Source: a virus (Duplodnaviria; Caudoviricetes). Taken from it: a stretch of 64,000 nucleotides of DNA. Below, piece by piece: positions 13,047-23,363 of this stretch. The stretch is taken from positions 1 to 64,000 of IMG/VR virus record IMGVR_UViG_3300021400_001091, one strand, 5' to 3'. The position numbers and the translations under genes are program-made. Under the pieces are notes generated by a model. It did not search any database. It saw only the letters and a list, made by a program, of their open reading frames with translations, and was not told the origin of the DNA. The first letter of the stretch is position 1, and every line of letters starts with the position of its first letter.

Positions 13047-13127
13047 TGGTGGAGATGGCGAGAATCGAACTCGCGTCCAAGACGTTCACTTCGGGTTTAC
13101 CGTCCCGTCGAAACCTTTCTCATCCCC
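13047..13127 (-). ncRNA. ssrA: Mini-tmRNA: tRNA-like domain only, no mRNA/tag domain
   Basis: GGGGAUG..AGGUUUCGAC 5' end; GGAC-GCGAG-UUCGAUU-CUCGC-CAUCUCC-ACCA 3' end; G3:U70; short closing hairpin in place of the MLD. Confidence 0.8.
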
Positions 13128-13368: not shown

Positions 13369-13452
13369 TGGTGCGGGAGAAGGGACTCGAACCCTTACGC
13401 ACACGGCGCCAGTTCCTAAGACTGGTGCGGCTGCCAATTACGCCACTCCCGC
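13369..13452 (-). tRNA. tRNA-Leu(TAG)
   Basis: Cloverleaf; CCAGT-CT TAG GA-ACTGG; long variable arm; CCA. Confidence 0.95.
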
Positions 13453-13460
13453 ATATTAAC

Positions 13461-13539
13461 TGGAGGACAGAGTGAGATTTGAACTCACGAATACACGGGT
13501 TGCAACCGTGCCCAATAGACCGAACTCTGGCATCTGTCC
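13461..13539 (-). tRNA. tRNA-Cys(GCA)
   Basis: CACGG-TT GCA AC-CCGTG; U73; CCA. Confidence 0.9.
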
Positions 13540-13542
13540 ATA

Positions 13543-13619
13543 TGGTGACGCTACGCGGACTCGAACCGCGACTCTTTAGGATGAAAACCTAATGTGTTAG
13601 CCTGTTGCACCATAGCGCC
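13543..13619 (-). tRNA. tRNA-Glu(TTC)
   Basis: TTAGG-TT TTC AT-CCTAA; CCA. Confidence 0.9.
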
Positions 13620-13622
13620 ATA

Positions 13623-13767
13623 AACTGTTGGTGAGGATTTGCACCTCACATAAGTCGATATCTACTCAAGTCGGAGGGAGTTGAACCCATAGGCACTTCC
13701 CGAAGGTTTTTAATCCTATGCCTGTCGCCTGACCATCCTCGCGTCTACCTATTCCGCCACAACAGTT
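13623..13767 (-). ncRNA. Oversized tRNA-like RNA (about 145 nt) with a nested insert
   Basis: AACUGUUG/CAACAGUU closing stem; Leu-type D arm UGGCGGAAUAGGUAGACGC; T-like arm GUGAGG-UGCAAAU-CCUCAC; about 90-nt insert. Confidence 0.6.
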
Positions 13768-13770
13768 AAT

Positions 13771-13847
13771 TGGTGGATCGACCGGGGCTCGAACCCGGAA
13801 CCTCCTGCGTGCAAAGCAGGCGCTCTCCCAATTAGAGCTACCAACCC
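13771..13847 (-). tRNA. tRNA-Ala(TGC)
   Basis: G3:U70; CCTGC-TT TGC AC-GCAGG; CCA. Confidence 0.95.
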
Positions 13848-13922
13848 ACAAAATATCAGTTTAAGCGTGCAACTGAAAAGCAGCAGAGATTTTTTATCCG
13901 GATATAGTAATCTGCCAACTAA

Positions 13923-14000
13923 TGGTCGGGGTGATAGGATTTGAACCTACGGCCTTCCGGTCCCAAACCGGACGCTCTAGCCAAGCTGAGCTACACCCCG
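13923..14000 (-). tRNA. tRNA-Pro(TGG)
   Basis: Canonical cloverleaf; CCA. Confidence 0.95.
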
Positions 14001-14021
14001 ATAAAAGGAGGAAAATCCTCC

Positions 14022-14222
14022 TTAATCTTCATATGCATCCTGCCAAGCGAAATTGAGACGGTCCTTTAATTCCTCAATATCTTCATGGAGTTCAGCCAAC
14101 CTATCCCATTTAGGGTCATTAGGTTCCCAGTTAAGACAATCAGTAGAAAAATCGGTATAAGTCTGCCGCGCAGCTTCTAATCTCTTCTCCAGCATGGGGA
14201 TGCTTTCATAATCACGATACAT
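14022..14222 (-). CDS. Hypothetical protein
   Basis: ORF with RBS. Confidence 0.7.
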   Translation of the reverse strand: MYRDYESIPMLEKRLEAARQTYTDFSTDCLNWEPNDPKWDRLAELHEDIEELKDRLNFAWQDAYED

Positions 14223-14235
14223 TGTAGTTTCCTTT

Positions 14236-14769
14236 CTAAAAAGCCTTCAAACCTTCATCAAAATCATTTACTACACAGAATGTCCAAAGCTCTTCTGTCC
14301 ACTTCTCCCAAAACTCTCTCAATTCCTTTTCGTGGAAGTAGATATAGTCGGCGGCCCAGGCTGTAGCAACACATTCGTCAAGGATATAGTAATATGCAGT
14401 ACAATACTTAGCATATTCTTCCTCATCCTCACAACACACAGTCAATGCTTCAATGAGTTCTTTCGTTTCATCAAACTCTGCCTGCTCTGTGTCAGACCAC
14501 AGCCGCCAAGTTTCATGATGACCAATTTCGTGAAGAAGACTCCAAATGAAAACGTTATCGGTAATTCTTGCGGCTTCGGGATGGTTTTCACAAATGAATT
14601 TCATAAAAGTTTCATCAGCAACGGCACTCATCAACAGTGAATACTGAAGTCTCTCAGTTTCATAGCAATAATTAAAATCCATACCGAGCTCCGCAGTACA
14701 CCCAAATTGAGATACAAAATCGTTAACAACCTTATCCAGTTGTTCTTTTCCTTTTAACGCATAAAACAT
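14236..14769 (-). CDS. Putative zincin-like metalloprotein
   Basis: LLHEIGHH (HExxH) with a downstream E. Confidence 0.55.
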   Translation of the reverse strand: MFYALKGKEQLDKVVNDFVSQFGCTAELGMDFNYCYETERLQYSLLMSAVADETFMKFICENHPEAARITDNVFIWSLLHEIGHHETWRLWSDTEQAEFDETKELIEALTVCCEDEEEYAKYCTAYYYILDECVATAWAADYIYFHEKELREFWEKWTEELWTFCVVNDFDEGLKAF

Positions 14770-14828
14770 AATAAAATCTCCCTTCTTTCTATATATATTA
14801 TATAAAAAATTTAGGATTTTTTCAAGTT

Positions 14829-15200
14829 TTACTTTTCAAGAAAACTAGCCACCATTTCAATATGGTCTTCAATTTGAACTATATTCTGGCAGGAAGTTCT
14901 CACTACTATCCCATCCTTGTCAAAGCCTTCGATTTCTTTTGAAAGAGGAAACTTTTTATAAACCATAATTGTCTTGCCGCCCTTCAAATTCACAACATCA
15001 CCAATAAATACTTCAGTGAAGATTGTATTGGACTTGCGCTCGGTCTGGATTTCATCTACAAAATCGTAGATATCCTCGTCATATAGAATGTCCATAATGT
15101 CTGTTGTCCCGAAAAGATCAAGGCAAGCAGTTTCGTTGCGGCTAAGCCACTTTAAACAATCAATTAGTTCGTTAAAGCTTTCTCTTTCTTCTGCTTTCAT
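14829..15200 (-). CDS. Hypothetical protein
   Basis: ORF with GGAG RBS. Confidence 0.7.
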   Translation of the reverse strand: MKAEERESFNELIDCLKWLSRNETACLDLFGTTDIMDILYDEDIYDFVDEIQTERKSNTIFTEVFIGDVVNLKGGKTIMVYKKFPLSKEIEGFDKDGIVVRTSCQNIVQIEDHIEMVASFLEK

Positions 15201-15210
15201 AGTATTTCTC

Positions 15211-15705
15211 CTATTTACTTAAACGATCTGCAATAGAGCTTGCAGCAAAAGAGTCTGGTTTAATCTCACATTCTAAACCTGTAGCATGAACCCAACCTAC
15301 TAATCCATCAACCAAGGTTGCAGTTTTATTCCTGGGCGCATTACCTACATCGAGATGAATACAGACAGGAACTTCGCTTACGAATTCCGCATACTGCGGC
15401 TGGTCGAGTTCGTCAAGAAGACGGGTAGCCACAATTAGTGAATCACCAGTTTCAATTTCTAATTTCTCTCTTAAGCTTTCAATTAAAGGTAGATACTTCT
15501 TTTTATAGAAAAAAATACCGCCATGACCTTCACAGACAATCGTAATTACCGTTACGACCTTCGTATCATGACGATTTTGACTATCAGTACCCACGATTAA
15601 GCTGAAGGGCATACCATATTTTTTTCTCTCATTATAAAAAAGAAGTAACTTTGAAGGGATTTCTTCTAAGTCGATTTCCCCGTAAGTCATACTGTGAAAC
15701 TTCAT
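15211..15705 (-). CDS. RNase H-like YkuK (DUF458) family protein
   Basis: IVGTDSQ, IHLDVG and IKPDSFAASSIADR motifs. Confidence 0.75.
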   Translation of the reverse strand: MKFHSMTYGEIDLEEIPSKLLLFYNERKKYGMPFSLIVGTDSQNRHDTKVVTVITIVCEGHGGIFFYKKKYLPLIESLREKLEIETGDSLIVATRLLDELDQPQYAEFVSEVPVCIHLDVGNAPRNKTATLVDGLVGWVHATGLECEIKPDSFAASSIADRLSK

Positions 15706-15787
15706 AATTACTTCCTCTGAAAAGCCGCTGTACGAGTTAACTCGCCTATTTGTGCATTTGGCCGCACGTCGGTGGCGACAGAATTAA

Positions 15788-15863
15788 TGGAGCCTGAAGA
15801 GGGACTCGAACCCCCGACCTATTGATTACAAATCAATTGCACTACCAGCTGTGCTATTCAGGC
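15788..15863 (-). tRNA. tRNA-Thr(TGT)
   Basis: ATTGA-TT TGT AA-TCAAT; CCA. Confidence 0.95.
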
Positions 15864-16048
15864 GCATATGCGGGAAGCTTTAGTTTTTTCCATGGACAGG
15901 TACTATATGCTTCCCTGGGAATACCTGCACTCCCAGATTGTTTCTTGATGAGGTTTTCTAATATAGTTTATCCTTCCAAGAAACTTACAAAAGGCCTGTC
16001 GATTTGTGCATCGGTAGACGTCCGGCCGAGAGGCCCGACAGGAACTAA

Positions 16049-16119
16049 TACCCTGGGCAAGAATCGAACTTGCGACCTGCAATATAATTGCTTCTTCTCT
16101 TCCACTGAGTTACCAGGAT
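16049..16119 (-). pseudogene. tRNA-like element with an aberrant anticodon arm (pseudo-tRNA)
   Basis: Intact acceptor, D and T arms (GCAAG-TTCGATT-CTTGC), but the anticodon arm GCAAT-TAT-ATTGC lacks a 7-nt loop; no CCA. Confidence 0.65.
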
Positions 16120-16126
16120 ATATAAT

Positions 16127-16200
16127 TGGCTACCCCTGTTGGAGTCGAACCAACACATACGGGATCAAAACCCGTTGCGCTGCCATTACGCTAAGGGGCA
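16127..16200 (-). tRNA. tRNA-Gln(TTG)
   Basis: ACGGG-TT TTG AT-CCCGT; U1:A72; CCA. Confidence 0.93.
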
Positions 16201-16205
16201 TCAAC

Positions 16206-16279
16206 TGGAGCAGTATACGAGGTTCGAACTCGTGACGTCTGCTTGGAAGGCAGAAATGTTACCACTACACCAATACTGC
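16206..16279 (-). tRNA. tRNA-Gly(TCC)
   Basis: TCTGC-CT TCC AA-GCAGA; U73; CCA. Confidence 0.93.
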
Positions 16280-16284
16280 ACATA

Positions 16285-16670
16285 ATATAGCGTATTATAC
16301 GCATACGCCAGACGGATTTAAGGTAATCACACCATGGGCGGTTTTCTATGCTGGATAACCGCAAACCAGGGTATGAGGCTTTTCTACCGCGCGCCACTCC
16401 TTACGCGCCTTTGATGGAAAGTTCGCTCTTTTCCGCGCCATCAGCGAATGGGTCACTCCTCCCGCGTACAGGGTCTCTCTTAGTCGAGCGATTCAACTTT
16501 TCCTTACCTTTGTTTGCTCCCCATGGATCCCCGGCTCCCCTTTATGTCCACAATTCATTCGGTCATGACTCCGATACACAGGTACTGTTGGTCATCATTC
16601 CTTCGATGGATGGTTCGTCATCAGCAAACTCTCTCAATACATTGGGTACCTATATTGAGTTTTGATTGAT
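16285..16670 (-). ncRNA. About 390-nt structured non-coding RNA candidate between tRNA-Leu and tRNA-Gly
   Basis: GC-richer and non-coding; several helices (CUCAAUAU/GUAUUGAG, UGAUGG/CCAUCA, GCGGUU/AACCGC) and a possible AGGUAC/GUACCU pseudoknot. Confidence 0.5.
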
Positions 16671-16677
16671 AAGCTTA

Positions 16678-16764
16678 TGGTGCGAGCGACCGGAGTCGAA
16701 CCGGTACGTCCGTGAGGACATTGGATTTTAAGTCCAAGGCGTCTGCCTATTCCGCCACGCTCGC
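16678..16764 (-). tRNA. tRNA-Leu(TAA)
   Basis: TTGGA-CT TAA AA-TCCAA; long variable arm; CCA. Confidence 0.95.
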
Positions 16765-16857
16765 ATTTCAATCCCGATTTCCCCTCGGGATAACAGAGGA
16801 TAGTTTAACCGACAACTATCAAGAGAGTTCTGATTTATCCTCAGGCTCTTAAAGATG

Positions 16858-16933
16858 TGGCGCTCCAAGTAGGACTCGAACCTACGACCCAGCGGTTAAC
16901 AGCCGCTTGCTCTACCAACTGAGCTATCAGAGC
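16858..16933 (-). tRNA. tRNA-Asn(GTT)
   Basis: AGCGG-CT GTT AA-CCGCT; CCA. Confidence 0.95.
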
Positions 16934-17198
16934 ATAATGGCGAGTTTACTTTGCCTCTTTTGGTATACCGTTTGCCACTCATTCATGCCACATATCACAT
17001 ATTGTGCCGGTGGTAGTTTAACTCGCAAATCCATGATAACGGTTTAAGGCGTCATTATTATTCCCTTTAAAGGCGGGTCGCATCAGCCTATAATAGCGAC
17101 TTCCTTTATTTTAAAGAGATACTTCCCTACCGATGCATCGTTTAACGGCCGCCACTTTGTTCGTGACCCTCCGTATAGGTTTTCTCTCTTCATTGGCT

Positions 17199-17274
17199 TG
17201 GTTGCAGGAGAAGGATTCGAACCTTCGACTTCAAGGTTATGAGCCTTGATTGCTAACCTCTGCATCATCCTGCG
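17199..17274 (-). tRNA. tRNA-Met(CAT), initiator-like
   Basis: C1:A72 mismatch; CAAGG-CT CAT AA-CCTTG; CCA. Confidence 0.88.
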
Positions 17275-17357
17275 ATGACGGGATTAAGTTTTTCCTTAAT
17301 CCCTTATCTTCTATATATATTATATAAAAAATTTCAGATTTTTTCAAGTTTTCACTT

Positions 17358-18311
17358 TTAAATGACTGTGAACTTTTTATCGAAAACTTTCTTGGCACCA
17401 TTGCCATCCCAACACCAACATCTATAGTAGTAAGTTCCCTTTGGAAGAGTATTGAAATGAAGTCTTAATCCCACTTTATTTCCTATATTAAATGACCAAT
17501 CTCCTATTGATAAGTCCATCTTGCGTGAAGTCCACTTCTTTCCTGTCTTATCTACAATACCGATTTCAACTCGGCGCATATAGTTGGTGCTTCTAATTGT
17601 ACCATTACAAACGAAAGCTGTACCTTTCTTAACCTTTGTTGGGTAAGCCATATTTTTAAGAGTGTACTTGCTTGCCCACACAAGCTTCTTATTAACCTGT
17701 GTTGCTATATACTTCATTTTACTCTTTAAATAAGGGCCTGGGCAAGCTGTAGCTGCAAACCAACAATGGAGCGTTAAATTTCCAGTTGTGTCTCCTGTGT
17801 AATTAAGTTTCCGAATATTATTTCTCTTACAAATATCAACGCATAAATCAATGAGCTTTGAAAGAGCCTTATCTGAAACTGGCCATTGACCTCCAATTGC
17901 ACTGTTACTAACTTCAATAGTAACTGCGCGCTGGTCATTGTCCCAGCTAGAGCTAGCCCACGATCTATTCTTTTCATCAACATATAATCCGACTCGTCCA
18001 TTTGAATCAATTCCGTAGTTGCTTGACGCTTGGCGCGCGGCCGATGCGAATATTGATCCGCATTGTTCGACGCTTAAAATTCCAGCCATGTGGTGAATTG
18101 TAATGCGGTCGATTTTATGCGTACGCAGGCCAGAATGATTTGGACTCCGCTTTACATAGTCTACGAGTTTGGAATTTGTATAGGTTGGAATAGTAACTGC
18201 TCCCCTCGATTTAGCTAACCACCCATAAAATCGCCCCATTTTTGGCTCGGCGCCACGTCCATTAGACAATTCTTTTAATTCCTCTTCTGTTAATTCTCTT
18301 ACTTCCTCCAT
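17358..18311 (-). CDS. N-acetylmuramoyl-L-alanine amidase (Amidase_2 type)
   Basis: ITIHHMAG, ASSNYGI, IEV and HCWFAATACPG motifs; start reset to MEEVREL after AGGAGG. Confidence 0.85.
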   Translation of the reverse strand: MEEVRELTEEELKELSNGRGAEPKMGRFYGWLAKSRGAVTIPTYTNSKLVDYVKRSPNHSGLRTHKIDRITIHHMAGILSVEQCGSIFASAARQASSNYGIDSNGRVGLYVDEKNRSWASSSWDNDQRAVTIEVSNSAIGGQWPVSDKALSKLIDLCVDICKRNNIRKLNYTGDTTGNLTLHCWFAATACPGPYLKSKMKYIATQVNKKLVWASKYTLKNMAYPTKVKKGTAFVCNGTIRSTNYMRRVEIGIVDKTGKKWTSRKMDLSIGDWSFNIGNKVGLRLHFNTLPKGTYYYRCWCWDGNGAKKVFDKKFTVI

Positions 18312-18322
18312 AATTCCTCCTA

Positions 18323-18751
18323 TTAGATTGCCCACGTAGTGGCTATATCTAATTGATATTCTCCATAGTAAAAATAGCCTGTGTCTAATACAATGCCGGG
18401 ACCAAGACTGGTTTGCACCTTTGTTCCTCTTGGCCGAACAGGTAAATAACCTCCACAAATTACATAATCTCCTGTACCATCATTCCACATATGGACACCA
18501 TCCCAGCGAATCCAATGGTAACCTTCAAAACCTAAATCATAGATAAACTGAATAAAGCTATCCATAGGCATATTATACCAGGTTTCTTTACCGCTTGGAC
18601 CATCGTTAACGCCTTTTTCAGCCGTTAAAACTGGCCCATCCCAGTAATATTCTGCTTCAGTAGTAACGGTCTCTTGAACAACTGGTTGCGCCGGTTCTTC
18701 AATTGGCTGCAACATAATCATTCCGAGTGCTATTGCTATTTCTGCAATCAT
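18323..18751 (-). CDS. Secreted 3D/RlpA-like cell-wall protein
   Basis: N-terminal hydrophobic segment; PRGTKVQTSLGPGIVLDTG..LDIATTW. Confidence 0.5.
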   Translation of the reverse strand: MIAEIAIALGMIMLQPIEEPAQPVVQETVTTEAEYYWDGPVLTAEKGVNDGPSGKETWYNMPMDSFIQFIYDLGFEGYHWIRWDGVHMWNDGTGDYVICGGYLPVRPRGTKVQTSLGPGIVLDTGYFYYGEYQLDIATTWAI

Positions 18752-18850
18752 ATAAACCTCCTTTTATATATGAAAATAAGCCGAGTCGAAATACTTGGCT
18801 CATTTTAATATTCATATGGCGCGAGCAGATAGAGTTAAACTCTAATCCTT

Positions 18851-19108
18851 TTACAGGGGTTTTATTTGCTTAACAATCCCATCAACCATAAACTCTGGAA
18901 TGTGTTTAAAAAGACAATCACCAGTGTCAGGACCAAAATAACCTTTGACCAAAATGTCATATGATACATCTCCATTATCTTGAAAAGTTCCCCAAGCATT
19001 AACAGTATAAATAGAACCAATCAGTTCTTCAATTTTTTGAGTTTTATAATCTGTTAAAACTTGAAATTTTACTATATCTCCATCTACATATTTCGGTTTA
19101 CCTAACAC
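18851..19108 (-). CDS. Hypothetical protein
   Basis: GTG start after AGGAG RBS. Confidence 0.7.
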   Translation of the reverse strand: MLGKPKYVDGDIVKFQVLTDYKTQKIEELIGSIYTVNAWGTFQDNGDVSYDILVKGYFGPDTGDCLFKHIPEFMVDGIVKQIKPL

Positions 19109-19131
19109 TTTAATTCTCCTTTTAAAATTAT

Positions 19132-19207
19132 TGGCGTACCTGGAGGGGATCGAACCCCCGACACACGGCTTAGAAGGCCGTTGTTCTATCCGCTGAACTA
19201 CAGGTAC
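19132..19207 (-). tRNA. tRNA-Arg(TCT)
   Basis: ACGGC-CT TCT AA-GCCGT; CCA. Confidence 0.95.
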
Positions 19208-19211
19208 AAAT

Positions 19212-19381
19212 TGGTGGGAGCAGCGGAGTTCTACCGCACTTTCCGACCTCCGCGGCCGGTGGTCTTACATAGAAGATAAAGTTTGCAACCTTTAAATTCT
19301 ACAAAATTATTTCTTTGCCATTTTCAATAGCTGTATTGTACACTACAACTAAGGGAAATATTTATTTAACCTATCACTCCC
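19212..19381 (-). ncRNA. 170-nt tRNA/tmRNA-like RNA ending in ACCA
   Basis: GGGAGUG/UGCUCCC acceptor plus ACCA; T-like arm GCGG-UAGAACU-CCGC; UUUCC/GGAAA helix enclosing hairpins; abuts the tRNA-Lys CCA. Confidence 0.6.
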
Positions 19382-19455
19382 TGGTGCGCCAACCCAGAGT
19401 TGAACTGGGATAAACAGATTAAAAGTCTGCGAGTCTACCCTTGACCTATTGGCGC
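19382..19455 (-). tRNA. tRNA-Lys(TTT)
   Basis: GCAGA-CT TTT AA-TCTGT; CCA. Confidence 0.9.
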
Positions 19456-19458
19456 ATA

Positions 19459-19533
19459 TGGCGACCCATGGGAGAGTTGAACTCCCGTCTTCGGCGTGAC
19501 AAGCCGATATAATAACCGTTATACTAATGAGCC
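19459..19533 (-). tRNA. tRNA-Asp(GTC)
   Basis: TCGGC-TT GTC AC-GCCGA; G73; CCA. Confidence 0.93.
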
Positions 19534-19536
19534 GAA

Positions 19537-19612
19537 TGGTTGGGAAGGTGGGGTTTGAACCCACGACCAGAGACTTATAAGGTCCCCACTCTCACCACTG
19601 AGTTACTTCCCA
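19537..19612 (-). tRNA. tRNA-Ile(TAT)
   Basis: GGGAC-CT TAT AA-GTCTC; A73; CCA. Confidence 0.88.
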
Positions 19613-19615
19613 ATA

Positions 19616-19702
19616 TGGCGGCGTGTCAGAGGCTCGAACTCTGAAGGCTTTTACACCCAACGGTTTTCAAGACCGCCCGACTACCAATTATCACAACACG
19701 CC
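19616..19702 (-). tRNA. tRNA-Ser(TGA)
   Basis: GCGGT-CT TGA AA-ACCGT; long variable arm; G73; CCA. Confidence 0.93.
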
Positions 19703-19703
19703 G

Positions 19704-19787
19704 CGGAAGGAGAGGGGATCGAACCCTCGCAACCTCTCGGTTGAACGGTTTAGCAAACCGCTGCAGTACCTCTATGCTTACCCCTCC
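19704..19787 (-). tRNA. tRNA-Ser(GCT)
   Basis: GCGGT-TT GCT AA-ACCGT; long variable arm; CCA not encoded. Confidence 0.9.
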
Positions 19788-21452: not shown

Positions 21453-22079
21453 TTAATTATTATACCCCGCAAAATCGAACAGAACCAACTTTCCATTCTT
21501 TAAACCAATATTCCCATCATGAACATCATTCACATAGCACTCATCAACCACGTTATAGAAATCATCCCCATAAATTTCTGCAAGCAAATCAATAATGCTG
21601 CTATTAGAACTATCCTCACACAGACTCGGATAACTACTATAAACCATATCCTCATCAGTTTCAACCTTTTCTTGGACAACCAACTTTAATCCATGAATAT
21701 TGATTGCAGTTGTAGTCGGGAAAACATCAATTACATCAGGATAGTTATCTAAAACATAGTTATAAGTCATGAGTTCTTCATCATTATAATCATAATTAAA
21801 CTCTTCTTCACTGTATCCTGTGCTGAAGTTAATCTTTGCAACATAAGGAAAGTCTTCCGGCACAATCACAAGACGAGTCGCCCCATTATACATATGCACA
21901 GGGCCGCAAGTCGAACAAAAATACTCATCTCCATCGCCATAGAACCGAATTTCCTGCCAATGCTCATAACCTCTATCGTTGTAAAAGAAGTCATCAAGTT
22001 GATCAAACTCACAGAGCTGTTCAATCAGAGCATTGAAGTAGTTGGTGATTTTCTTTTTTTCTTGAATTGTTAATTCCAT
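21453..22079 (-). CDS. Protein-kinase-like fold protein
   Basis: VAKI lysine, NDVHDGNIG catalytic loop and LFDFAG Mg-binding motif. Confidence 0.6.
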   Translation of the reverse strand: MELTIQEKKKITNYFNALIEQLCEFDQLDDFFYNDRGYEHWQEIRFYGDGDEYFCSTCGPVHMYNGATRLVIVPEDFPYVAKINFSTGYSEEEFNYDYNDEELMTYNYVLDNYPDVIDVFPTTTAINIHGLKLVVQEKVETDEDMVYSSYPSLCEDSSNSSIIDLLAEIYGDDFYNVVDECYVNDVHDGNIGLKNGKLVLFDFAGYNN

Positions 22080-22159
22080 CTCTCTTTTTCCTTTCTTCTA
22101 AATATATTATAACAAAAATTCAAGAAAAAATCAAATTTGCCCAATAAAAAAAGGAGGGA

Positions 22160-22541
22160 TTAGCCCTCCAGTTTCCTAATTTGACGCTCCAACTTCTTTT
22201 TGACGCCGGGGCAGTCAGTGTAACGGCCACGAGTTAAAATAACGTTCAGCCGGTTCTTCAGATAAATAAGTTTCTCTTCCTTAGTCATGAGAAATCACCT
22301 CAAGAAACAGTCCATATTCATCTACAGGAGTAATCCTATATCCATAATCCCGATAGGTCTGAACATAAGTTTTCCAAGCCTTGCAAATATCGTTAAATGC
22401 GGCCTCGAGCTTCTCCTGTTTTTCCTGCTTCGCCTTTTCTGCGGCCTCTTTTTCGGCCTTAAATGCCTTTTCATCTTCCAGACATTCTTCGACCGTGTTA
22501 TACGATTTTCCTGTAATTTCACTCTGAATAATCATATACAC
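22160..22541 (-). CDS. Two small coupled genes (22281-22541 and 22160-22288)
   Basis: RBS and overlap; the second is a 42-aa basic peptide MTKEEKLIYLKNRL... Confidence 0.65.
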
Positions 22542-22560: not shown

Positions 22561-23183
22561 AAAACCCTTAAATAAATATATACCTAAGTGACTTTCACCA
22601 TACTCCATACTACTTTCAAGTATATTCAGTCAATAGGGAGACAAGTCCGAAGACCAAGGAGCGACCTTGACCTAACCTGCCCCAGCTCGAGATCTAGAGC
22701 CATCATCCTATATGGGATTGATTACCCACAACTTTCACCCACCTTACGGCATAAGATTAGAAGGAACGGTGCTTCGCGCCTACTTTCCTTAGATAAACTT
22801 TTATCTTCTGTGTCTTGTCGATTTGAGCTACTCGTACGCGACTCACGTAGGTCTTATACACAGATTTCTCTGCTTCACAACAAAAGGAATTATTGGCTTT
22901 ACCAAGGTTTGAAACAGTCGCCGGCTAATCCCTAACTTGGCTTCTTCTCCACAGAAGCGTCTATTACTTCCCCGACCCACATGCTACCTTTACTTGCAAT
23001 AGTAGAAGTGCTACGACTTAGGTTTGGGGATTTAACCACTCCACCATAGGAATCGCTTCTCTATGGAACAGAGCTACTCATAAGTATCCTTACTTTATAA
23101 CTCTGACCTATTCATCGCACCTCAGCCTACTGGTTCAGTAGTTCTACACTGAGTTCTTAGTTATATATTTATTTAAGGGTTTT
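22561..23183 (-). ncRNA. 623-nt large ornate ncRNA (ROOL-like candidate) closed by a 28-bp terminal stem
   Basis: 22561-22588 and 23156-23183 are inverted repeats (27/28 bp); many internal hairpins (CCAUAG/CUAUGG, GCAGA-GAAA-UCUGU, GUGGG/CCCAU); no credible ORF; own promoter. Confidence 0.7.
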
Positions 23184-23190
23184 TCAAGGT

Positions 23191-23244
23191 TCACGCACTC
23201 TGCGTTTACACGGGCTTGTGACCGTCCTTGGCCGCATTACGCAA
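23191..23244 (-). ncRNA. Twister self-cleaving ribozyme (type P1)
   Basis: UUGCG-UAA-UGCG-GC-CAAGG-ACGG-UCAC-AA-GC-CCGU-GUAAA-CGCA-GA-GUG-CGUGA. P1, P2, P4 and both pseudoknots pair; predicted cut between U23239 and A23238. Confidence 0.88.
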
Positions 23245-23334
23245 GTAAGGTGAGGGGCGGAAGAAAGGAAACAAAAGCCGCCCCTCGTTTTATAATCAAA
23301 ACAGTTTATCTGTTTTTCTCAACCTTATATATAT

Positions 23335-23363
23335 ATTATATCTGAATTTTAGGATTTTTTCAA
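23335..23363 (-). promoter_or_regulatory. Promoter for the twister/large ncRNA transcript
   Basis: TTGAAA-N17-TATAAT followed by ATATAT, as at other middle promoters. Confidence 0.75.

Follow-up and report, generated by a model that had tools for sequence, protein, structure and literature searches.

Twister and HDV-like ribozymes bordering ROOL RNAs behind a conserved leader hairpin in rumen phages

The ROOL RNA of an uncultured phage lies seven nucleotides downstream of a type-P1 twister ribozyme, and in related operons the same slot, behind a conserved leader hairpin, holds a ribozyme of an unrelated, HDV-like class. The window, by which we mean the whole 64,000-nt stretch of DNA analysed here, is part of a 96.5-kb phage contig in IMG/VR, and the sequencing runs containing this stretch come from rumen and gut samples. 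Our comparisons establish the identities of the parts, covariation within the hairpin and within each of the two ribozyme folds, the synteny of the operons, the fixed position of the predicted cut and the occurrence of RNA contigs that hold ROOL alone. They make it likely that these parts form a compact operon in which twister cleavage frees both a leader hairpin and a ROOL RNA with a 5'-OH end; cleavage in vivo, the chemistry of the ends, any trimming and the purpose of the cut are inferred. ROOL, the twister, the phage HDV-like (theta) ribozymes and the placement of a twister upstream of a structured RNA (RAGATH-8) were all known before. What is new is that ribozymes, either twister or HDV-like, border ROOL behind a conserved hairpin in rumen phages, their self-cleavage being inferred.

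Parts of the RNA operon

All parts of the operon lie on the minus strand, and are listed here in the direction of transcription:

23335..23363, minus strand: sigma-70-type promoter (-35 TTGAAA 23363-23358, 17-nt spacer, -10 TATAAT 23340-23335)
23252..23286, minus strand: leader hairpin, with a 9-bp GC stem GAGGGGCGG/CCGCCCCUC and a 17-nt pyrimidine loop
23239..23251, minus strand: 13-nt spacer from hairpin to predicted cut, including the 5' strand of twister P1 (UUGCG 23244-23240) and U23239
23191..23244, minus strand: type-P1 twister without P3, supported by Rfam RF03160, our own covariance model and covariation; P1 23244-23240/23195-23191, P2 23236-23233/23204-23201, P4 23225-23223/23212-23210, pseudoknot T1 23232-23231/23215-23214, pseudoknot T2 CAC 23220-23218 / GUG 23198-23196
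U23239/A23238, minus strand: predicted twister cut, from alignment
23190-23184, minus strand: 7-nt linker ACCUUGA between twister and ROOL
22561..23183, minus strand: ROOL RNA, 623 nt, supported by Rfam RF03087 and a 27/28-bp AU-rich closing stem
22281..22535, minus strand: gene X, 84 aa, of unknown function, with homologues that come after ROOL in related operons

The initial annotation, made without database searches, had assigned the large RNA to the ROOL class by inference, and the assignment held: RF03087, with a gathering score of 99.1 bits, matches at 337.1 bits (E 5.6e-77) across model positions 1-574 and window positions 22570-23177, far above the cut-off. The 623-nt length and the AU-rich terminal duplex that it had described were also confirmed, the duplex joining 23183-23156 to 22588-22561 with 27 of 28 positions paired and a single A.G mismatch, as were the distance from ribozyme to RNA (exactly 7 nt) and the phage tRNA neighbourhood, which consists of 17 tRNA genes on ROOL's strand at 13369-19787; every coordinate it gave was correct. 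Like known ROOLs (RF03087; Weinberg et al. 2017, PMC5737381; nanocage PMC12286853), this RNA is of phage origin, matches the same model at full length, is comparable in length (623 nt, where the mean is 581; PMC5737381) and lies near a same-strand tRNA array, whereas its closing stem reaches past the Rfam model. Published descriptions of ROOL are silent on how its ends are formed, in contrast to the window and its relatives, where a ribozyme of a self-cleaving class stands at the 5' border. The homo-oligomeric RNA cage is known by cryo-EM for other ROOL members (PMC12286853).

The linker ACCUUGA and the AAA that follows it make up a motif, CYUUGAWAA, by which the 5' border of ROOL can be recognised elsewhere. 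This motif (window 23184-23192; also L007, L008, L013, L016 and L338) pairs with UUAUCAAG at the ROOL 3' end, which makes the closing stem longer than in the Rfam model; the window retains CCUUGAAAA and has lost the 3' partner.

Downstream, gene X starts approximately 25 nt past the ROOL stem, with its ribosome-binding site (RBS) 10-20 nt past it, and neither a terminator nor a ribozyme was found between ROOL and gene X in the window. PHROG searches returned no match for gene X or for the upstream ORF, and blastn of the locus against GenBank phages gave none either. The tRNAs and a tmRNA-like gene share this strand and occupy 19787 to 13047. The latter is a mini-tmRNA (13047-13127, minus strand) whose tRNA-like domain matches the Rfam tmRNA model at 71.8 bits, with 12 nt in place of 306 model positions of the mRNA domain; similar mini-tmRNAs occur immediately 5' of ROOL in two other phages (L334 and L337). 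On the opposite strand to the genes, at 22057-22128 (plus strand), there is a 12-bp inverted repeat with a 48-nt loop that also contains TTTCCTTTC, which is probably a chance occurrence.

The ribozyme had been described as a complete P1-type twister at 23191-23244 with a CAC/GUG pseudoknot, and this too held, with the reservation that its Rfam match is significant but sub-threshold. The element scores 54.6 bits with RF03160 (E 7.5e-12), where 67.2 would be needed to reach the gathering score, so that ROOL passes its Rfam cut-off and the twister does not; it is the sole twister match in the whole 96.5-kb contig. The shortfall can be put down to the missing P3, which is optional, and the gathering score is in any case an operational cut-off rather than a biological feature: when 20 other phage twister loci, most of them without P3, were scanned with Rfam, none reached it. 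P3 is likewise absent from the crystallised Osa-1-4 twister, and P1 is dispensable for cleavage (PMC6154101). The window's P1 has only 5 bp, two of them G.U pairs, a point against the reading proposed below. The twister core was found at 86 loci in viral contigs, with 23 distinct sequences in exactly the P3-less format of the window, and a covariance model of our own, built on 23 other P3-less phage twisters with the window excluded, scored the window element at 76.2 bits (E 3e-20). When the fold, including both pseudoknots, was imposed on 23 phage twisters, 94.4% of cells were paired and nine of 17 pairs had changed on both sides. The conserved UAA, GC, AAGCC, UAAA and GAGNG are all present in the window; its CAC/GUG is the commonest phage variant of T2, in which the middle pair covaries (CAC/GUG, CCC/GGG, CUC/GAG, CGC/GCG). 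By sequence, fold and covariation, therefore, the element is a twister, while its self-cleavage is inferred. With the type-P1 twister (RF03160; Roth et al. 2014, reviewed in PMC6154101) it shares P1, P2, P4, both pseudoknots and the U-A cleavage site; the optional P3 is missing, as in the Osa-1-4 crystal form. It is unlike the typical member in its sub-gathering score, its CAC/GUG T2, and the large non-coding RNA found downstream instead of a gene. An HDV-like descriptor run on both strands of the window found no match.

The linker that replaces P3, CAAGG (23226-23230), is complementary to CCUUG (23185-23189) and to CCUU (23247-23250). Linkers of the AAGG type are frequent in other P3-less twisters, and the complementarity may be due to chance or may represent a competing alternative pairing.

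The promoter was confirmed at 23335-23363, where it had first been called as a dedicated promoter. It matches the consensus at 11 of 12 positions and would place the transcription start near 23328, but a promoter scan is not by itself above chance (three sites found, 2.8 expected). The call rests instead on consensus and recurrence, since the same block occurs in more than 119 rumen-phage loci and aligns with the promoters heading related ROOL operons; we consider it likely, although inferred from sequence alone. The same ubiquity led us to reject promoter similarity as evidence of orthology, which we base on the hairpin and the flanking proteins.

The GC hairpin (previously placed at about 23252-23286) is more than had been claimed for it, being a conserved element in its own right. 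It is kept in 11 distinct leaders, with an invariant loop core, UUUCCUUUC, and in six aligned leaders all of the stem cells pair (100%), with four of nine pairs changed on both sides. It is not incidental, and would be released by the predicted cut, if cleavage occurs as inferred. For the leader and twister together (123 nt), the fold energy is unremarkable (z -0.90), a weak result given that pseudoknots are left out of the energy model.

Ribozymes at the 5' borders of related ROOLs

The nearest ROOL relatives of the window are about 70% identical to it; their leaders nonetheless align with the window's, combining different hairpin stems with the common loop core. In one of them (L211) the locus is flanked, in the window's order and orientation, by the upstream ORF, gene X and a further ORF, with identities of 39%, 36% and 48% respectively. 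In these syntenic relatives the slot occupied by the twister in the window contains an HDV-like ribozyme. Rfam detected nothing in the relatives' leaders, and the HDV-like elements were recognised by eye and with a descriptor of our own; they consist of a P1 beginning with G1.U, P2, a GC-rich P3, an L3 of UCCNCGU, P1.1 and a C-UAA junction. The nested double pseudoknot (P1, P1.1, P2, P3), G1.U and the catalytic C of J4/2 are found in L170, L180, L197, L211, L212, L336, L338 and L144, while L335 has the same fold by eye but a G1-C pair, hence falling outside the strict descriptor. Across nine sequences 153 of 153 cells pair, against 27-46% in slid controls, with ten of 17 pairs changed on both sides and with G1.U and the catalytic C invariant. 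It might be objected that element boundaries were set by a descriptor that itself demands pairing, and the pair counts do lean towards the fold for this reason; however, the sequences had come from searches with the ROOL motif or with a pattern confined to P3 and L3, leaving the 5' strand of P1 and both strands of P2 unconstrained.

Twisters recur in the same position. A near-identical strain from another sample (L213), found through its homologue of the upstream ORF, has the same twister. In L214, where the upstream ORF is 51% identical, the same hairpin precedes a twister whose P3 is short and which Rfam scores at 57.8 bits (E 5.8e-12); relative to that of the window, it has both-side changes in every one of the four P2 pairs and in a single pair each of P4 and P1, the core being kept; a ROOL-like 5' end follows approximately 100 nt after this twister, where the contig stops with only the first ~45 nt of ROOL visible. 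Further operons came from a search with the promoter block. Two of them (L336 and L338) have a twister behind the hairpin, separated from ROOL by about 300 nt of uncatalogued RNA and, after that, an HDV-like ribozyme; in L335 the hairpin leads to an HDV-like ribozyme and then ROOL; and in L334 a twister is followed by a tRNA and a mini-tmRNA abutting ROOL. Seven operon-head twisters, the window's included, have 97.9% of cells paired and 15 of 21 pairs changed on both sides, with slid controls at 20-51%. Direct adjacency of twister and ROOL, at 7 nt, was seen only in this phage and the near-identical L213, and the hairpin-twister head is also found on two fragments with no ROOL in view (L282 and L293). 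More remote homologues of the upstream ORF (L215-L217, ~33% identical) have other genes after them.

In sum, a ribozyme follows the hairpin in 11 of 11 distinct homologous leaders, five of them twister and six HDV-like, and in every one the predicted cut falls 10-13 nt past the hairpin. Two unrelated classes, each evolving under constraint on its fold, fill one syntenic slot, and both cleave at the 5' edge of the ribozyme, which is most simply explained if selection acts on the cut itself. The alternative, that the twister has no role in ROOL biogenesis and is merely a copy of a widespread phage module that came to lie in the ROOL leader, whether or not it cleaves, can draw on the near-identical twister cores that precede many unrelated phage genes, typically 20-40 nt before the RBS, and on the rarity of twisters at ROOL borders in an unbiased sample (one of 51 informative loci, see below). 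Against it stand the 11 of 11 leaders, with two unrelated classes and a constant cut position, and the divergence of the twisters in these leaders through compensatory changes; we judge it very unlikely.

Two further features of these operons may be recorded. The uncatalogued RNA module of L336 (1103-1425) and L338 (about 1166-1430) has a core ACCAGGYGAGCAAAUGU ... GGAUGWGCGGUURGCUGACC, and occurs also between the HDV-like ribozyme and ROOL in L170, L180, L211 and L212; it is absent from the window and from L197. A second HDV-like ribozyme, theta-sized, lies about 200 nt after ROOL and just before the RBS of gene X in L170 (2729-2780), L180 (6081-6133), L212 (812-863 nt after the ROOL 5' end), L193 and L336, such that ribozymes bracket ROOL and its 3' tail in these five; the window has no second ribozyme.

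To place these operons among ROOLs at large, we surveyed 75 loci with the conserved ROOL core motif in viral and metagenome contigs, which together with the window comprise 62 distinct ROOL bodies, 51 with enough upstream sequence. Rfam confirmed a full-length ROOL at each of the 15 viral loci tested and at L170, L180 and L197. The 5' borders were as follows:

tRNA within 150 nt upstream: 15/51
-10 box within 45 nt: 8/51
HDV-like ribozyme, strict descriptor: 4/51
theta-type HDV-like variant, relaxed descriptor: 4/51
twister, window only: 1/51
unclassified: 19/51

The survey of ROOL loci for upstream ribozymes that the initial annotation suggested thus yields eight HDV-like ribozymes and one twister, giving a ribozyme at the 5' border in at least nine of 51 informative loci, or about one in six. 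The remainder mostly abut a tRNA or a promoter, and on this basis a defined 5' border, be it ribozyme, tRNA or promoter, is the rule for ROOL. Several qualifications apply. The use of a single exact core motif means that only part of ROOL diversity was sampled, and the HDV-like tally depends on a home-made descriptor. L004, L006, L152 and L185 have a longer J4/2, satisfy only the relaxed descriptor and are counted as probable HDV-like; this descriptor found nothing on reverse-complement controls. These four and L144 belong to other ROOL subfamilies, where the HDV-like ribozyme borders ROOL without the leader hairpin. Our twister model found no further twister adjoining ROOL in the survey set.

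Two patterns written for the twister-to-ROOL junction matched nothing in metagenomes and one locus in viral contigs (L105), a chance match with neither ROOL nor twister that was discarded. By requiring CCCGNG and a spacing of 40-70 nt the patterns were too narrow, and missed L214, L336 and L338. The same unrelated viral contig carries a hammerhead-like core, CUGAUGAGGGUCUAGUAAGACCGAAAC, just before a gene start (L105:7268-7297), which Rfam does not return at E 0.001.

A proposed origin of the ROOL 5' end

We propose that the locus is a compact phage RNA operon that would be read from the promoter through a ~90-nt hairpin leader, the twister and ROOL to gene X. The twister would fold and cut between U23239 and A23238 during transcription, yielding a ~90-nt hairpin RNA, with U23239 as its last base and ending in a 2',3'-cyclic phosphate, and a 678-nt RNA with a 5'-OH at A23238 in which 48 nt of twister and the 7-nt linker precede ROOL; this end chemistry is inferred from established twister behaviour. 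The cut would free ROOL from its triphosphate leader without any protein, and allow the closing stem and the cage to assemble from a defined end. The first reading of the locus had already suggested that the ribozyme removes the leader and gives ROOL a 5'-OH, and the comparative support for this is strong, with cleavage itself still inferred. The removal needs partial qualification, since a twister cuts near its own 5' end and ~48 nt of ribozyme and the 7-nt linker would stay on the 5' side of ROOL unless trimmed. The accompanying remark that ribozyme-mediated maturation is not known to have been described for these RNAs also held: in the literature that we searched there is no paper linking ROOL with self-cleaving ribozymes, and nothing on how ROOL ends are made.

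A bolder reading would extend this to the ROOL operons of a lineage of rumen phages, as transcripts punctuated by interchangeable ribozymes in which the class is free and the cut is fixed at 10-13 nt past the hairpin, cleavage is selected, a hairpin with a loop like the 16S tail is released, ROOL is left with a 5'-OH and a ribozyme cap, and 5' biogenesis needs no protein; we would neither press this reading nor dismiss it.

RNA data bear on these proposals to a limited extent. In three metatranscriptomes from two studies ROOL was assembled as stand-alone contigs of 512-569 nt, the widest covering 22582-23150, while the same runs left the leader, twister, gene X and upstream ORF without cover; an unbroken DNA contig from a different study reaches from ROOL across the twister to the hairpin (22851-23316). 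The uncovered flanks in the RNA runs argue against carry-over of DNA. The strains concerned differ by ~1.5%. These contigs lend support to a discrete and abundant ROOL, and nothing more should be read into them, assembled contigs being uninformative about ends, strand or level; the missing cover over twister, leader and gene X is not used here as evidence of absence. They stop inside the closing stem on both sides. A ribozyme left on ROOL might predict RNA contigs that reach the twister, and none do, but this is weak given that the outer stem is uncovered too and that the strains differ.

These observations are relevant to a second rival, that host nucleases make the mature ROOL ends, either by RNase III cleavage within the stem or by 5' exonuclease trimming from the 5'-OH. 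The ribozyme would then be only an entry point or transcript separator, or a mark for decay as with glmS, where RNase J1 gains access to the 5'-OH that cleavage exposes (Collins 2007, cited in PMC6154101). In favour are the 27/28-bp AU-rich duplex, a length that is enough for RNase III, and, as a weak hint, the RNA contigs, which in all three runs, from two studies, stop within the closing stem and leave out the twister. The 3' end of ROOL, moreover, would have to be made by a nuclease, since neither a terminator nor a ribozyme separates it from gene X in the window. On the other side, contig ends cannot be equated with the ends of RNA molecules, an exonuclease should be impeded by a folded ribozyme at the 5' terminus, and ROOL, far from being degraded, accumulates in RNA libraries. 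We regard nuclease maturation as a possibility; the suggestion in the initial annotation that the long stem could be an RNase III site is a reasonable idea for which there are no cleavage data.

A third rival holds that the selected job of the ribozyme is to release the small leader hairpin RNA, ROOL being merely the next module. It overlaps with our preferred reading rather than excluding it. The loop resembles the pyrimidine tail of 16S rRNA, and it is possible that it binds purine-rich ribosome-binding sites. The invariant loop core and covarying stem support hairpin release, as does a cut that always falls 10-13 nt past the hairpin although HDV-like ribozymes need no upstream sequence. In L336 and L338, furthermore, the twister is ~400 nt from ROOL and a second, HDV-like ribozyme borders it, and L282 and L293 have the hairpin-twister head with no ROOL in view. 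However, no conserved complement to the loop was found downstream in these operons, and the CCUCC core of the anti-Shine-Dalgarno sequence is absent from the loop. Five loci (L004, L006, L144, L152 and L185) have an HDV-like ribozyme at the ROOL border without any such hairpin. The leader has no cover from RNA contigs, but for an RNA of 90 nt this carries no information. On balance we lean slightly against hairpin release as the selected function.

ROOL is among the few giant RNAs of bacteria and phages with a solved structure, an RNA-only cage, and has no known function. Were our preferred reading, that twister cleavage frees ROOL with a 5'-OH, correct, ribozyme-defined 5' ends would offer natural termini for structural and functional work, and a cleavage-dead point mutant would be a simple genetic handle on the role of ROOL in infection. 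Some of the hundreds of orphan HDV-like (theta) ribozymes in gut phages would be accounted for, and two unrelated ribozyme classes in one syntenic slot would constitute a clean natural case of functional equivalence. The P3-less phage twisters and these HDV-like ribozymes fall below Rfam thresholds and are, consequently, absent from routine annotation.

Relation to known ribozyme arrangements

The ribozymes in the relatives' leaders have the same fold and core as theta ribozymes, the minimal HDV-like ribozymes of gut phages (Kienbeck et al. 2024, PMC10879173), and both are small, protein-free elements of RNA punctuation in tRNA-rich phage regions. Theta ribozymes were described at tRNA 3' ends, whereas those in ROOL leaders have ROOL downstream, and in the window the element is a twister. 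The same paper leaves 526 non-tRNA copies unexplained and does not mention ROOL (PMC10879173).

An HDV-like ribozyme is also found at the 5' end of R2 retrotransposon RNA. The R2 ribozyme and the glmS/RNase J1 system resemble what we propose for the window in that self-cleavage sets or exposes the 5' end of a downstream RNA, with a 5'-OH. Both differ in organism and in downstream RNA, and the glmS cut leads to decay, whereas ROOL accumulates.

A further parallel is RAGATH-8 (RF02687), which was found beside twister and hammerhead ribozymes and likewise places a twister directly upstream of a structured non-coding RNA. At 276 nt it is unrelated to ROOL, and no leader hairpin module has been described for it. 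We observed RAGATH-8 directly after a twister with or without P3 in two loci (L032:474-741 and L071:5428-5696; 230-241 bits). In another phage locus a pistol ribozyme (L026:6884-6947), at 52.2 bits and above its cut-off, lies about 720 nt upstream of a twister.
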